Below are positions 6,077 through 32,000 of a stretch of 32,000 bases of DNA, piece after piece. Each line of letters starts with the position of its first letter. The first letter of the stretch is position 1. The notes under the pieces were generated by a model. That model had not been told where the DNA came from. It searched no databases and worked only from the letters and a program-made list of their open reading frames with translations. Source of the stretch: Candidatus Hadarchaeota archaeon (GTDB lineage: Archaea; Hadarchaeota; Hadarchaeia; Hadarchaeales; Hadarchaeaceae); the NCBI GenBank assembly GCA_964514965.1, contig CAZETV010000001.1, forward strand, positions 60,001 through 92,000, given 5' to 3'. Made by a program: the position numbers and the translations under genes.

Positions 6077-6568
6077 ATGGACGACTTTACATTTGGATTG
6101 CTCTATGGCGTTGTAGCAATGGCCCTTGTGGGGGTCTTGTTATTCTTGTTAGGCCGAAAACTCGATCGACGGCTTTACCTGCGACCAGTACTTTATGGCT
6201 TTTTTTTCTGGGCGGGCGTCAACGTACTTTTTGTAGGAGGAATCTTCAGCTTTTTGGTAGGTGGTGCGGTTACTGGATACTTTCTCGCTCGGGAGGTTGG
6301 AGAATGGGGGAATCAATTTCGAGCGGGTGGGTTGAGCGGTACTTTAATCATTTGCAGCCTTCTCCTCGCGAACATTTTGATCCTATTCACACGAGGCGTC
6401 TCTGATATCTCAGTTAGTCCGGTTAGTCATGAGGAAGTATTATTTCTGCTGTATGGGGACATGTTAATCTATGCTTTTATGTTGTTGGCCATTGCCGGAA
6501 TTGGCGCTGTGCTGGGTGGTCTGCTGCGCAAGCTCTTAAAACCTGCTGGGCAGGAACCCCAACAATAG
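6077..6568 (+). CDS. Hypothetical polytopic membrane protein (163 aa)
   Basis: It has four to five hydrophobic segments and AAGGTG 5 nt upstream of the ATG. I recognise no family. Confidence 0.6.
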   Translation: MDDFTFGLLYGVVAMALVGVLLFLLGRKLDRRLYLRPVLYGFFFWAGVNVLFVGGIFSFLVGGAVTGYFLAREVGEWGNQFRAGGLSGTLIICSLLLANILILFTRGVSDISVSPVSHEEVLFLLYGDMLIYAFMLLAIAGIGAVLGGLLRKLLKPAGQEPQQ

Positions 6569-6781
6569 CGTTTTGTTTGTAAAGAACTCCACCCGAAAAC
6601 TCGGTGGGTGAATAGGGGTAGCATCAAAATAAATTGGATATACCAATAAGCTCGGCTTGAATAAGGTACTTAGTTTGAATGTTTGTTGGTGATAGGTTCT
6701 TTTGTATTGATACAAAATTTCGGCAATGCGCTTAATTTTAGAAACACAAATCATTTATCCCGAAAAATCAGACGAATTTAC

Positions 6782-6802
6782 GGTAGTGGGGTAGCTACCT
6801 GC
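6782..6802 (+). repeat. 5'-flanking partial copy of the tRNA 5' end
   Basis: AGTGGGGTAGCTA (6785-6797) matches AGCGGGGTAGAGC (6803-6815) at 10 of 13 positions, offset by 18 nt. GGTAGTGGGG (6782-6791) can form 10 bp (one G-U) with CCCCGCTACC (6986-6995). Confidence 0.6.
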
Positions 6803-6818
6803 AGCGGGGTAGAGCAGC

Positions 6819-6849
6819 AGTAGGCGAACTACTCTGCCCCTACGGCAGC
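6819..6849 (+). other. tRNA intron 1 (31 nt, D-loop, position 16/17)
   Basis: The intron helix GTAGG (6820-6824) / CCTAC (6839-6843) is flanked symmetrically by GCA triplets (6817-6819 and 6848-6850). The central 4-nt helix has only two G:C pairs (AGCA vs GGCA), so this is a relaxed BHB. The boundary falls inside a repeated AGCA, so the product is the same for several registers. Confidence 0.55.
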
Positions 6850-6865
6850 ATGGAGTGCCCGCCGG

Positions 6866-6886
6866 TCGTGGAAAACCACGGGCGAA
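6866..6886 (+). other. tRNA intron 2 (21 nt, anticodon stem, position 30/31)
   Basis: This is a textbook BHB. The central helix CGCC (6860-6863) / GGCG (6881-6884) has 4 of 4 pairs. The 3-nt bulges are GGT (6864-6866) and AAG (6885-6887). The inner helix CGTGG / CCACG closes an AAAA loop. Cleavage after the second bulge nucleotide joins ...CCGG to GCTCATA. Confidence 0.75.
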
Positions 6887-6893
6887 GCTCATA

Positions 6894-6927
6894 AGGCGTC
6901 AAGCCGTGGGTTTGGCGCTCCTGCGAG
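6894..6927 (+). other. tRNA intron 3 (34 nt, canonical position 37/38)
   Basis: CTCA (positions 32-35) pairs with TGCG (6922-6925) at 3 of 4 positions. The bulges are TAA and AGA. The intron hairpin is GGCGT..GCC / GGC..GCTCC. The 3' exon starts with A38 followed by CCCGG. A 38/39 register gives the same product. Confidence 0.65.
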
Positions 6928-6949
6928 ACCCGGAGGTCAGTGGTTCAAG

Positions 6950-6979
6950 AGAGAGTGGCGTAAAACCTCTCTCGGGATT
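6950..6979 (+). other. tRNA intron 4 (30 nt, T-loop, position 59/60)
   Basis: The outer helix is the T-stem. The central helix TTCA (6944-6947) / GGGA (6974-6977) has U-A, U.G and C-G pairs plus one mismatch. The bulges are AGA (6948-6950) and TTT (6978-6980). The inner helix is GAGAG / CTCTC. Splicing leaves exactly a 7-nt T-loop, TTCAAGT. Confidence 0.7.
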
Positions 6980-7035
6980 TCCACTCCCCGCTACCTTATC
7001 TAGTCTGATTGTCTAAGTGAGTTAAGAGGCTAATT

Positions 7036-7623
7036 ATGTCTATTATCGGTTTGGTTGCGCTTACTCTGCTCTTGGGCCCATTTGGCGCTATACCGTTCGC
7101 GTTTGCTCAAGGAATGTCGACTTTTGATACTGCAATCACTGTAAGCATTATCCACGCGACTCTCGTGCCAGTATGGTTGGGTTTTTTTGAATTTATTGGG
7201 TATAGCATGCGTTACAAAAATCGTATTATCTCCCGTGTTATGAGGTACGCAACGACTAAATCTAAAAGGTTCAGGGTAGATATTGACAGTTACATACGAA
7301 AATTTGAGCGCCGGACGGGACAGTTCGGTTTTGCTCTCGGTGTGGTTGGATTCACATTTTTGGTTGGCGTCTCTTGGGCGGCTCTCTGTGCTTACATACT
7401 AAACATAAAGAAGAAGACGATCCTCGCATCCATCGCTGTCGGTGCAGTGATTTCAAGCGTTTTCTGGACCTTTGTGTTTGCTGGAATTGTGGGGGCCCTT
7501 CCTAGCCCATTGACACTTTACCTAATATTGATTGTTGCGACGTTCGCTTTCCTCGTATACAAGAAAGTTCGCGAGCGTAAACTATTACGGAAAATTTTTC
7601 ATCCAGTCTTAAAAGATCGTTGA
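7036..7623 (+). CDS. Hypothetical polytopic membrane protein (195 aa), with weak resemblance to the small multidrug-export / COG2426-type family
   Basis: It has several hydrophobic helices and a basic central loop. The N-terminal GAIPFAFAQG string is reminiscent of that family but is not decisive. Confidence 0.55.
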   Translation: MSIIGLVALTLLLGPFGAIPFAFAQGMSTFDTAITVSIIHATLVPVWLGFFEFIGYSMRYKNRIISRVMRYATTKSKRFRVDIDSYIRKFERRTGQFGFALGVVGFTFLVGVSWAALCAYILNIKKKTILASIAVGAVISSVFWTFVFAGIVGALPSPLTLYLILIVATFAFLVYKKVRERKLLRKIFHPVLKDR

Positions 7624-7675: not shown

Positions 7676-8815
7676 TCATTTGATTAGCCCAATTTTGTAA
7701 AGGTACTCAGCTGCTAGCACTGCACCCTTCGCTGCGCCGAGTTCGGTGTTGTGCGAGAGCACGGTGTACTGGAAGCCGTTCTCAAAAGCGTTTGCTTCTA
7801 CTCCGCCGATGACCGCGACCATGCCACCTTCCAAGGTTGAATCGAACTTAGGCTGGGGCCTGTCTATCTCATTCATGATTACTATCGGTTGTTTAGGTGC
7901 GGTCGGTAATTCCAGTTTTTGTGGTTCGCCCCGATAATTTTTCCAAACTTCTTTCAGCTCATTGATAGTACATTCTTTCGTGGTCTCGATGAAAACGGAC
8001 TCCGTGTGACCGTCGAGGACCGGAACACGATTACATTTGCATGCAATCTTAAATCCCGTTGGTGTTATTTTATCTTCGTTGAATTCTCCAAGGAGCTTCA
8101 CCGTTTCTTTTCTGACTTTTTCTTCCTCCATGTGAATGTATGGAATGACGTTGCCCTCGAAGACACTTTGGGAAAATTCATCCAGTCCAGCCGGAAGGTC
8201 GGCCCCTTGTATCTTTCGCTGTTCGGCCCAGCTCCTGACCGCACTATACCCCGCGCCAGACACAGCCTGCATCGAAGCCATCGTCACGTGCTCAAGTCCG
8301 AATTCATCGTGCACAGGCTTCAAAGACATCACTAGGCCAATAGTCGTGCAGTTGGGCTGAGGCACGACAAATCCTTTCCAACCCCTACCTTTTTGTTGCA
8401 CATCTATGATGCCGGCATGTGACTCATTCACACTCGGCAGGTATACAAAGCTGTCGTCGAAGTAGCGATAGGCTGAAGCCGTGCTGACTACCGGCTTTTC
8501 CATTGCGATGTTTCCCTCGACCCCTAGCGCCGTTTCCGACGGCAACGCTGAAAAGAACAAGCTGTTTTCTTCAGGGCGCACGTTGCTAAGATTCCGGACT
8601 ATCATGTCTAAAATTTTTTTGCTGGACGCTCCTTTGCAAAACCATCTTGAATTTTCCATCCCATAATTTAGTGCATCTGCATAAGTCCTGTCAGCGGACC
8701 TTTCCGAGGCATACAATGCCGTGAGCTCAAACCACGGGTGCTTCTGAAGGTTGAGTACAAATTTCTGCCCAACCTCGCCCGTCGCGCCCAAGACAGCAAC
8801 TGGTATTTTCTTCAT
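7676..8815 (-). CDS. asd: Aspartate-semialdehyde dehydrogenase
   Basis: It has the N-terminal Rossmann motif VAVLGATGEVGQ, the active-site context QPNCTTIGL, SGAGY and a DGHTESV block. GGTGA lies 5 nt upstream of the ATG. It sits next to the DAP/lysine operon. Confidence 0.85.
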   Translation of the reverse strand: MKKIPVAVLGATGEVGQKFVLNLQKHPWFELTALYASERSADRTYADALNYGMENSRWFCKGASSKKILDMIVRNLSNVRPEENSLFFSALPSETALGVEGNIAMEKPVVSTASAYRYFDDSFVYLPSVNESHAGIIDVQQKGRGWKGFVVPQPNCTTIGLVMSLKPVHDEFGLEHVTMASMQAVSGAGYSAVRSWAEQRKIQGADLPAGLDEFSQSVFEGNVIPYIHMEEEKVRKETVKLLGEFNEDKITPTGFKIACKCNRVPVLDGHTESVFIETTKECTINELKEVWKNYRGEPQKLELPTAPKQPIVIMNEIDRPQPKFDSTLEGGMVAVIGGVEANAFENGFQYTVLSHNTELGAAKGAVLAAEYLYKIGLIK

Positions 8816-8889
8816 TCATTCACCTGCTCTACTGTGTTCTCAAGTCTTATTTATTTAATTTGACAAGTTGAAAAGATTTAGGTGTTTAG

Positions 8890-9024
8890 ATGCCCCGCCG
8901 CAAGTATGGGCACATGGTCGGGCCACTTCCAGCTCCGCCTAAACCCGAAAAGTGTAGATTTTGTAGGCGGGGGTTACCTTGTCCTTTCCATAAGCAAAGA
9001 AAAACATCTCTGAGAAAAAAGTAG
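8890..9024 (+). CDS. Candidate small basic zinc-knuckle protein (44 aa), below the ORF-track cutoff
   Basis: My own translation is MPRRKYGHMVGPLPAPPKPEKCRFCRRGLPCPFHKQRKTSLRKK. AGGTG lies 7 nt upstream. The AT-rich TATA-like TTATTTATTTAATTT lies about 30-40 nt upstream. The region is a GC-rich island between two minus-strand genes. It could instead be a structured RNA. Confidence 0.35.
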   Translation: MPRRKYGHMVGPLPAPPKPEKCRFCRRGLPCPFHKQRKTSLRKK

Positions 9025-30550: not shown

Positions 30551-30624
30551 TTACACCAATGTTATTTTATAATCATATCTAAAAAACATATTTAAAACAT
30601 CGCTTCCACTATTTCTTGGTTTTA

Positions 30625-32000
30625 ATGGTTTCTGCGAATGATATACAGGTGCTTGTGAAATCTAAGTTGAAAGGATACAAATTTCTAATTGTTTCTAACC
30701 GTGAGCCTTACATCCATATGCACACGCCTGATGGGGTGCAGGTTAAGACCCCCGCTGGAGGTCTGACAGCGGCTCTGGACCCCCTGATGCAGACTACCGG
30801 CGGAACGTGGGTGGCAGGCGGTAGTGGGGATGCCGATCGGGAAAACGTAAATAAACAAAATCGGTGCCGGGTCCCCCCCAGTAACCCGAAATATGTGCTT
30901 AAACGGGTCTGGATGTCAAAGGACGAGGTGGACAAGTTTTACTTCGGTTTTTCGAATCAGACGCTCTGGCCCCTCTGCCATAACGTGTTTCGGGAACCCG
31001 TTTTCAAGAAATCGTTCTGGAACGGTTACAAGCACTCGAACGCACTGTACGCGGAAGCTATCAGGCAGGAGATGAAGGGAATAGATAAAGCTTTCATTTG
31101 GTTTCATGACTATCACTTGGGGCTAGCACCAAGAATGGTCAGGAATGGAGCCCCGAAAAAACAAAAGCTTGTGCTTGCTCATTTTTGGCATATTCCTTGG
31201 CCCACATGGGATACATTCACCCTTCTACCGTGGGGGGAGGCGATACTCGACGGCATGCTCGCGAACGACCTCATTGGTTTTCACCTCCATAGTTATTGTG
31301 TCAACTTCTTGACGAGCGTTGAGAAGGTGATGGGAATTAAACCCGATTACAGGACACTTAACGTGAGATATAAAGGACGCAGCATTCACGTGAGGCCCTT
31401 CCCTATAAGCGTGGATTTTGAAACCATTGATAAACTGGTGAGAAGCCCAGGGGTAAAGCGGGAGATGAAGCGCGTCCGAGCTCTCCAGTACATTCCATAC
31501 AAATATATCGGTGTAGGCGTAGATCGGATTGACTACACAAAGGGCATCATTGAGAGGTTCAGGGCCATAGATCGGTTTTTGGAGAAGTACCCAGAGTACC
31601 AGAATAATTTTGTGTTCGTGGAAGCAGGGGCACCAAGCCGCACACGAATTCCAAAGTATATGGAACTGAACGAGGAGATATCTAAAGTTGTCGAAAAGAT
31701 TAATTGGAAATACATGAGGGGCTATTGGAAACCTATCATTTACATTGGGGGAAAGTTGGGTCCAGATAAACTTTTCGCATTATACAGAACCGCTGATGTT
31801 TGTTTAGTGAGCCCGATTCAAGACGGGATGAACTTGGTGGCGAAGGAATTCATCTCTGCAAATTTAGATTGCACGGGAGCGTTGATGTTAAGCAAATTTG
31901 CGGGAGCAACAGAGGAACTGGAGGGTGCCGTGATAATCAATCCTTATGATGTGGAGGGATTTGCAGACGCGATTAAAGATACTTTGGGCATGTCGCTGAA
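30625..32000 (+). CDS. otsA: Alpha,alpha-trehalose-phosphate synthase (GT20, OtsA-like), 3'-truncated by the window end
   Basis: My own translation from ATG 30625 (frame 1) stays open to 32000: MVSANDIQVLVKSKLKGYKFLIVSNREPYIHMHTPDGVQVKTPAGGLTAALDPL...FSNQTLWPLCHNVF...WFHDYHL...DRIDYTKGI...QDGMNLVAKEF. All are GT20 hallmarks. It is absent from the ORF track because it has no stop codon. Confidence 0.88.
   Translation, partial: MVSANDIQVLVKSKLKGYKFLIVSNREPYIHMHTPDGVQVKTPAGGLTAALDPLMQTTGGTWVAGGSGDADRENVNKQNRCRVPPSNPKYVLKRVWMSKDEVDKFYFGFSNQTLWPLCHNVFREPVFKKSFWNGYKHSNALYAEAIRQEMKGIDKAFIWFHDYHLGLAPRMVRNGAPKKQKLVLAHFWHIPWPTWDTFTLLPWGEAILDGMLANDLIGFHLHSYCVNFLTSVEKVMGIKPDYRTLNVRYKGRSIHVRPFPISVDFETIDKLVRSPGVKREMKRVRALQYIPYKYIGVGVDRIDYTKGIIERFRAIDRFLEKYPEYQNNFVFVEAGAPSRTRIPKYMELNEEISKVVEKINWKYMRGYWKPIIYIGGKLGPDKLFALYRTADVCLVSPIQDGMNLVAKEFISANLDCTGALMLSKFAGATEELEGAVIINPYDVEGFADAIKDTLGMSL

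Follow-up and report, generated by a model that had tools for sequence, protein, structure and literature searches.

The question raised by the locus described here is whether a GC-rich island of an archaeal chromosome in which standard tools detect no tRNA harbours a working gene for the initiator tRNA-Met. The island lies at 6803-6993 on the forward strand of the stretch of DNA analysed, 32,000 nucleotides in length and hereafter called the window, to which all coordinates refer. A sequence-only reading of the window had claimed an initiator tRNA-Met gene at this place, split by four introns of the bulge-helix-bulge (BHB) type and with the anticodon on a micro-exon of just 7 nt. Junctions deduced from orthologs, together with conservation of the BHB motifs, uphold that claim: 6803-6993 is very likely a functional 75-nt initiator tRNA-Met gene, with four BHB introns at tRNA positions 10/11, 30/31, 37/38 and 59/60. 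One of the four, that in the D-arm, is placed differently from before.

The ends of the island are those of a tRNA. Seven base pairs without a mismatch make up the acceptor stem (AGCGGGG 6803-6809 with CCCCGCT 6986-6992), which begins with A1:U72 and is followed by the discriminator A6993, and the T-stem (AGTGG 6939-6943 with CCACT 6981-6985) directly adjoins the acceptor 3' strand. The TTCAAG of the T-arm and the variable loop AGGTC are both seen, and CTCATAA is found at 6888-6894. All of these elements, the T-arm one as TTCAA, had been listed by the sequence-only reading and were found again where it had put them. Removal of 6866-6886 and 6894-6927 gives the anticodon arm CCGGG-CTCATAA-CCCGG. 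Archaeal initiator tRNA-Met is marked by a CAU anticodon, by A1:U72 and by three G:C pairs at 29-31/39-41. The present locus has the CAU anticodon, A1:U72 and G29-31:C39-41, so that the initiator signature previously ascribed to it can be read directly; the pair G11:C24 is obtained only with intron 1 at 6813-6843. With that intron the mature tRNA is AGCGGGGTAGGGCAGCATGGAGTGCCCGCCGGGCTCATAACCCGGAGGTCAGTGGTTCAAGTCCACTCCCCGCTA. This 75-mer is called as tRNA-Met(CAT) by ARAGORN, with a full cloverleaf and all four arms, and is identical to an intron-less archaeal tRNAiMet at 71 of 75 positions. Its anticodon-arm and D-arm core, GGAGTGCCCGCCGGGCTCATAA, is common to 120 archaeal tRNAiMet genes from metagenomes. 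Two intron-less tRNAiMet genes from this comparison (L024 and L103), as distinct from the 75-mer of the window, score 63-64 bits on the Rfam model RF00005. All five exons follow one another in order on one strand, in a span of 191 nt, and the gene is thus neither split nor permuted.

Intact, the same locus escapes notice, as had been foreseen. ARAGORN reported no tRNA anywhere in the 32-kb window, nor did its intron mode bring one out when the region was excised, and Rfam gave no match over the window at the gathering threshold or over 6700-7100 at E<=10. That RF00005 does not recognise the locus as a contiguous gene is to be expected with four introns and has no bearing on function. The relatives described below behave alike: all 48 intron-bearing ones were called tRNA-Met(CAT) by ARAGORN once spliced, while none of the 24 with three or more introns was detected unspliced. 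An essential initiator tRNA unseen by both ARAGORN and Rfam is a likely blind spot of annotation. Since these tools miss the gene, metagenome-assembled genomes (MAGs) of Hadesarchaea annotated with them could seem to have no tRNAiMet, and such an apparent loss may affect those criteria of MAG quality that are based on tRNA complement.

Orthologs provide the strongest evidence for the exon boundaries. The gene asd, a neighbour of the tRNA gene encoding aspartate-semialdehyde dehydrogenase, was used as a query and led to 19 related loci in MAGs of Hadesarchaea/Hadarchaeota with amino-acid identities of 68-89%, which place the source of the window among the Hadesarchaea (Hadarchaeota). The same tRNA gene was found downstream of asd in 17 Hadesarchaeal loci. 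Scanning of metagenomes for the conserved core GGAGTGCCCGCCGG(N0-30)GCTCATAA brought 120 further archaeal tRNAiMet genes. Intron architectures were taken from the parse requiring fewest introns, which resolved 91 genes, and all 91 gave a mature sequence of 75 nt. Forty-three are intron-less; the remaining 48 have one, two, three, four or five introns in 15, 9, 3, 14 and 7 cases, respectively. Eight intron positions occur in the dataset (4/5, 10/11, 14/15, 20a/21, 30/31, 37/38, 45/46 and 59/60), seven of them in Hadesarchaeal genomes.

Alleles lacking a given intron were, in every case, uninterrupted at precisely the junction that the window predicts. This holds for intron 2 (30/31) in L005, L006, L008, L010, L016 and L120, for intron 3 (37/38) in L006, L008, L010 and L016, and for intron 4 (59/60) in L006, L009 and L016. 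The extremes among them are L006, which has the D-arm intron (10/11) only, and L010, with the T-loop intron (59/60) only; L016, without the 30/31, 37/38 and 59/60 introns, has an extra one at 20a/21, and L009, without 59/60, an extra one at 45/46. The micro-exon 6887-6893 is contiguous with its neighbours in alleles without intron 2 or without intron 3. This contiguity confirms to the nucleotide the introns 6866-6886, 6894-6927 and 6950-6979, all three just as first proposed, as well as the 7-nt exon. The resulting features are collected in Table 1.

Table 1. Features of the initiator tRNA-Met locus in window coordinates
Feature	Position	Strand	Remarks
Candidate archaeal TATA box ATTTATCC	6753-6760	+	Likely pre-tRNA promoter, from archaeal promoter geometry
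5' leader	6785-6802	+	Imperfect copy of exon 1, AGTGGGGTAG (6785-6794, 9/10), then CTACCTGC
Exon 1	6803-6812	+	tRNA nt 1-10, AGCGGGGTAG; from spliced ortholog alignment and BHB rule
Intron 1	6813-6843	+	31 nt, position 10/11; single junction fits all 17 loci having this intron
Exon 2	6844-6865	+	tRNA nt 11-30, GGCAGCATGGAGTGCCCGCCGG; gives perfect D-stem GGGC/GCCC
Intron 2	6866-6886	+	21 nt, position 30/31; HBh' type
Exon 3 (micro-exon GCTCATA)	6887-6893	+	7 nt, tRNA nt 31-37; anticodon CAT at 6890-6892
Intron 3	6894-6927	+	34 nt, canonical position 37/38
Exon 4	6928-6949	+	tRNA nt 38-59, ACCCGGAGGTCAGTGGTTCAAG; from ortholog comparison
Intron 4	6950-6979	+	30 nt, T-loop position 59/60
Exon 5	6980-6993	+	tRNA nt 60-73, TCCACTCCCCGCTA; final base is discriminator A

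The introns were then considered as BHB motifs, in which each boundary lies in a 3-nt bulge and a 4-bp helix stands between the two bulges, relaxed hBH and HBh' forms being allowed (PMC4090602). The rule of the sequence-only reading that cleavage follows the second bulge nucleotide was adopted. Pairs were scored in coordinates anchored on the splice sites, over all distinct sequences. A brute-force BHB scan of the precursor finds more than 150 chance motifs and, being too permissive alone, was used only with comparative data. Motifs are present at all eight splice sites of the proposed gene; below, the central helix is H, the outer helix h and the inner helix h', and a hyphen in a bulge marks the predicted cut.

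The motif of intron 2 is the perfect one it had been said to be, with an H of 4/4 pairs (CGCC/GGCG), bulges GG-T and AA-G, an h' of CGTGG/CCACG with compensatory variants CGCAT/ATGCG and CGCGT/ACGCG, and no outer helix. Intron 3 has 3/4 pairs in H (CTCA/TGCG, U33 being unpaired), bulges TA-A and AG-A and a weak h'; orthologs with TGAG reach 4/4. Across 23 distinct sequences, pairs 1, 3 and 4 of its H are formed in 20-23 and its h in all 23. Intron 4 uses the T-stem (5 bp) as its outer helix and has TTCA/GGGA as H (3/4), GAGAG/CTCTC as h' and the bulges AG-A and TT-T. Over 22 distinct sequences 92.4% of cells in this motif are paired, compared with 30-60% in slid controls, and 68 cells are changed on both sides; none of 500 shuffles reached the observed value. 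Compensatory helix variants are seen likewise across orthologs having the 45/46 intron. For intron 1 at 6813-6843, H is formed by GGGT 6807-6810 and CCCT 6838-6841 (3/4 pairs, the fourth restored in L027 and L052), the bulges are AG-A and AC-G, and h' comprises GCAG/CTGC and AGTAG/CTACT (4+5 bp). Pairs 1-3 of both H and h' are formed in 15 of 15 distinct sequences, and 76% of cells are paired against at most 64.5% in slid controls.

The location of this first intron was the one point of gene structure at which the earlier interpretation had to be changed. It had been put in the D-loop at 6819-6849 (16/17), with a relaxed BHB, and the comparison instead places an intron of the same length (31 nt) 6 nt further upstream, at 6813-6843 (10/11). 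A 16/17 intron of equal length gives a product that ARAGORN also calls tRNA-Met, and in the window GTAGG 6820-6824 would pair with CCTAC 6839-6843 (5 bp), GCAGCA being repeated at both ends. That helix, however, is confined to the window and its nearest relatives and suffers uncompensated breaks in L001, L004, L005, L006, L009, L012, L015 and L016, while the central helix has just 2/4 pairs. The junction would, furthermore, shift between orthologs from 13/14 to 16/17 and would be impossible in L027. The intron of L027 bears no resemblance to the exon, and the 10/11 junction is unambiguous there. The D-stem would read GAGC/GCCC with an A11.C24 mismatch: A11 conflicts both with the GGGC D-stem of orthologs lacking the intron and with the G at position 11 of all 100 archaeal tRNAiMet genes whose 5' half is contiguous; L010 and L011, orthologs without the 10/11 intron, have G there too. 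The 10/11 junction is the only one fitting at one position in all 17 loci. The exon that follows it always starts GGCAGC, and the bulge nucleotides before it vary (TAC, CAC, CAT, CAA, TAT). An intron at 16/17 is therefore highly improbable, and 6813-6843 was substituted for it. Of the 75-mer first put forward, the ARAGORN identity tRNA-Met(CAT) and the anticodon arm stand, and nucleotide 11 becomes G in place of A.

Other treatments of the D-arm were rejected. A product joining GGGG to TACGGCAGC, with D-stem CGGC, would lose U8, and the TAC concerned varies in orthologs (CAC, CAT, CAA, TAT). Nested or two-step removal of intron 1, or inclusion of the continuous GGGGTAGAG/CTCTGCCCC helix in a BHB, was evaluated by hand and with the brute-force list and gives no bulges and wrong products.

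The 5' end of the gene poses a related problem in that exon 1 has a near copy in the leader. In the Hadesarchaeal loci inspected, a TATA-like element (TTTATC or TTAAAG) precedes the first AGCGGG-like element by about 31-33 nt, its spacing being constant to this first (leader) copy and not to real exon 1. The leader copy matches exon 1 exactly (10/10) in L001-L004, could pair with CCCT in the same central helix, and is paired with the 3' acceptor strand in the minimum free energy (MFE) fold. It may be asked, then, whether 6785-6794 (AGTGGGGTAG) could serve as the 5' exon, alone or alternatively, with a first intron of 6795-6843 and a tRNA containing U3.G70. Many orthologs, however, have degenerate copies (AGCGGGGAAA, AGCGGGTGAA, GGCGGGAAAG, AGCGGGATAC) that could not yield a valid exon 1, whereas their second copy is always perfect, and an inner helix is lacking after the splice site of the first copy. 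Because of this degeneracy the leader copy is not considered the functional exon, and its use as such appears highly improbable; exon 1 is taken to be 6803-6812 throughout.

The leader has a structure of its own, a hairpin of GGTAG 6782-6786 with CTACC 6795-6799 for which L033 offers the compensatory pair GGTGG/CCACC. Among the loci inspected, the leader with its hairpin is conserved wherever a 4/5 or 10/11 intron occurs, except in L027, which belongs to a distant lineage; copy and hairpin are both absent where the tRNA starts right after 'ggt' (L007, L008, L010 and L037). The CTACCT of the leader is complementary to exon 1, too. An 18-nt intron spliced at the leader hairpin of the first copy (H GTAG/CTAC) was tried by hand and rejected on account of its nonsense product.

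Whether the gene is alive can be addressed through the pattern of substitution. Between the window and its six closest loci there are no differences at the 75 exon positions and 4-8 at the 116 intron positions. The distant four-intron loci L015 and L109 have, as their sole exon changes, double compensatory swaps in the T-stem, three pairs in L015 and two in L109, and the swapped pairs are formed only once intron 4 is removed. Such swaps are characteristic of a working gene that needs splicing in order to function. The alternative, a pseudogene that has decayed or become riddled with insertions, or else a tRNA-like assembly arisen by chance, would agree with the blank results of standard tools and with the incompletely encoded CCA. 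Against this, the exons stay constant where introns and flanks vary, substitutions in the T-stem compensate one another across intron 4, all inserts follow the BHB rule, with covariation, and at least 17 Hadesarchaeal genomes have an ortholog in synteny. A pseudogene or chance assembly is thus extremely improbable.

Several observations weigh against a functional gene spliced as proposed. One mismatch is present in three of the four central helices. Introns 1 and 2 are without an outer helix, so that an endonuclease accepting relaxed motifs is needed. The covariation in the inner helix of intron 1, counted as changes on both sides, comes largely from one distant sequence, L027. The precursor has an MFE of -104.8 kcal/mol (z = -5.0), and in this fold the BHBs of introns 1 and 3 are missing; it favours a continuous 9-bp helix GGGGUAGAG/CUCUGCCCC and the pairing, already mentioned, between leader copy and 3' acceptor strand. 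Finally, splicing, junctions, order and expression are all deduced from sequence.

Maturation can nevertheless be pictured in outline. Transcription would probably start from the TATA-type promoter near 6753-6760 and yield a precursor of ~210 nt with a leader of ~20 nt, the latter presumably removed by RNase P; the 3' end would be trimmed. In the window and its closest relatives the discriminator is followed by CCT (6994-6996), CCA not being fully encoded, and most other Hadesarchaeal orthologs encode CCA. Since the gene reads CCT after A73, completion of CCA after transcription is proposed. Each intron would adopt its BHB, with two 3-nt bulges around a 4-bp helix, and would be cut by the splicing endonuclease EndA after the second bulge nucleotide on each side. 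An EndA of relaxed specificity would be expected to perform the cleavage and an RtcB-type ligase to join the exons.

The splicing reactions are most likely ordered, intron 2 preceding intron 3, because simultaneous cuts at both would lose the 7-nt anticodon exon, which would then be tethered to the departing intron strands by no more than a few base pairs. Intron 2 would be the first to go because its own BHB, which sequesters nt 25-28, is self-contained, while the outer helix of intron 3 needs exons 2 and 3 to be joined. This outer helix is the anticodon stem, with 1 bp before removal of intron 2 and 5 bp after it. Ligation of exon 2 to exon 3 would thus allow the anticodon stem to form and would complete the canonical BHB of intron 3. 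As the central helix of intron 1 uses G5-G7, the acceptor stem would be complete only after intron 1 has been removed. The gene is also suited to the study of ordered splicing of close introns around a 7-nt exon.

The individual introns differ in how they evolve. Those at 30/31 and 37/38 are near-invariant across Hadesarchaea (L001-L018, L037, L088, L094 and L120), the 34-nt 37/38 intron being identical in the window and L011 though their asd sequences are just 74% identical. The introns at 59/60 and 45/46, in contrast, have diverged freely, their changes being compensated. Inspection of the 37/38 intron by eye for a box C/D guide RNA revealed no C or D boxes; a candidate GUGA reads GUGG in the window. 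A bolder proposal is that the Hadesarchaeal tRNAiMet is the most interrupted tRNA gene known (eight positions, up to five introns), that its maturation is an obligatorily ordered cascade in which introns transiently sequester nucleotides of the acceptor, D- and anticodon stems, and that the 30/31 and 37/38 introns have a role of their own, for example in enforcing order around the 7-nt exon or in intron-dependent modification, as does the leader with its decoy copy; taken as a whole, this is speculative and rather unlikely.

The number of introns rises to five in L012 (Ca. Hadarchaeum yellowstonense YNP_45), L007, L011, L013, L014, L018 and the metagenomic L037, which combine an intron at 4/5, 10/11 or 14/15 with those at 30/31, 37/38, 45/46 and 59/60. 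The acceptor-stem intron at 4/5, of 15-18 nt, occurs in L011, L013, L014, L018, L031, L033, L061, L083, L107 and L134. Its central helix is formed by pairing of the last two leader nucleotides and A1-G2 with the intron and covaries (GTAG/CTAC, GCAG/CTGC and ATAG/CTAT); in L031, L083, L107 and L134 an 18-nt parse, with the boundary moved by 4 nt, brings H to 4/4. The 20a/21 intron of L016 has a perfect BHB (ATGG/CCAT). In L007, L008, L037, L088 and L094 an intron is present at 14/15, four nucleotides downstream of 10/11, with H AGGG/CCCG and an h' of GTAG/CTAC covarying with ATAG/CTAT. It is related in sequence to the 10/11 intron and this, along with the exon-like intron start AGCAGC, suggests, speculatively, that introns may have slid. 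A search for copies of the four introns elsewhere in 143 sequences, such as translocatable introns would leave, found only chance 12-mers within coding sequence. With one to five introns in a single syntenic orthologous gene, these loci form an unusually clean series for the gain, loss and possible sliding (10/11 versus 14/15) of BHB introns.

Unusual introns are also seen in tRNAiMet genes outside Hadesarchaea. L053 has them after G7 and inside the T-arm, L027 at 10/11 and 59/60, and L113 and L045, metagenome contigs from other archaeal lineages, have very long 37/38 introns of 93-125 nt; L138 and L030 are further non-Hadesarchaeal metagenome contigs whose tRNAiMet has unusual introns. In the metagenome contig L142 the 3' end of tRNAiMet (…CCCCCTCCCGCTA) is present twice, ~70 nt apart, the pattern that would be expected of an integrated element targeting the tRNA gene.

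The tRNA island lies between two forward-strand open reading frames, of which 6077-6568 is without a Pfam family and 7036-7623 encodes a small multidrug-export-like protein; asd follows at 7676-8815 on the reverse strand. The remaining window is ordinary archaeal chromosome, with genes for ribosomal protein L21e, the RNA polymerase subunit Rpb4, SRP54, GGGP synthase, pyruvate:ferredoxin oxidoreductase (PFOR), lysine biosynthesis, a NiFe hydrogenase with HypF, and SufBC. No EndA gene is present within the 32 kb, and no other hidden tRNAs were found in the GC-rich intergenic islands of the window. One such island, 8885-8980, upstream of asd and with a 7-bp CCCCGCC/GGCGGGG complement, folds no better than shuffles (z of -1.1 and -0.35 for the two strands) and is probably not a structured RNA. 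The region 30551-32000, considered as a hidden-tRNA island, was rejected as coding.

How the gene compares with known interrupted tRNAs bears on the earlier suggestion that four introns are at or beyond the described limit. Reviews and the tRNAscan-SE 2.0 paper do give three introns per tRNA gene as the published maximum, and to that extent the suggestion was right, but four are tabulated in Asgard archaea (PMC11291895). A literature search that reached few subscription papers brought to light no account of this gene, no initiator with four introns and no tRNA gene with five. Among Thermoproteales, three-intron tRNAs include tRNA-Glu(UUC) of Pyrobaculum calidifontis and tRNA-Pro(UGG) of P. islandicum (Sugahara et al. 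2007/2008, as relayed in PMC4390854 and PMC4090602). As far as these relayed accounts go, such multi-intron tRNAs resemble the present case in the removal of introns by EndA and ligase, in the occasional removal of one intron before the next BHB forms, and in being missed by standard finders. The present gene differs from them in belonging to Hadesarchaea rather than Crenarchaeota, in having four introns (five in orthologs) as opposed to three at most, in being an initiator and in bearing its anticodon on a 7-nt exon.

In the Asgard Atabeyarchaeia and Freyarchaeia most tRNAs contain introns, many of them several (Valentin-Alvarado et al. 2024, PMC11291895, Supplementary Data 4). Up to four per gene are recorded, as in Arg-TCT and Ile2-CAT of Freyarchaeia, the initiator having three (PMC11291895). 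Hadesarchaea belong to another phylum and their initiator has four introns, with up to five in orthologs; no five-intron case was found tabulated for Asgard archaea. A further parallel is the tRNA-Thr of Caldiarchaeum subterraneum, where intron gain left behind a 5' tRNA fragment (Sugahara et al. 2012, PMC3293823). There, as here, an intron-containing gene is preceded by a partial copy of the tRNA 5' end and intron content differs between alleles of related genomes, and the leader copy of the present gene may by analogy have been left over from intron gain (compare PMC3293823). The likeness is one of analogy only, as the copy is here just 18 nt upstream, inside the leader, and no mobile element separates the two copies.

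Closest to the present case is the Hadesarchaea genome YNP_N21, for which Kaneta et al. 2018 (PMC5829648) reported a marked rise in disrupted tRNA genes. The Hadesarchaeal EndA was described as an alpha4 enzyme with an L3 insertion loop, associated with more tRNA gene disruption (PMC5829648). The lineage is the same, and that work thereby offers a candidate enzyme of broadened specificity; it gives proportions of disrupted genes only, and this gene, its four or five introns and the series of presence and absence were not found described there. The gene of the window thus appears as an extreme case of a known archaeal phenomenon, of moderate novelty that is reduced by the 2018 Hadesarchaea and 2024 Asgard papers, and with its orthologs the number of introns documented for a single tRNA gene rises to five in named genomes, for instance that of Ca. 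Hadarchaeum yellowstonense YNP_45.

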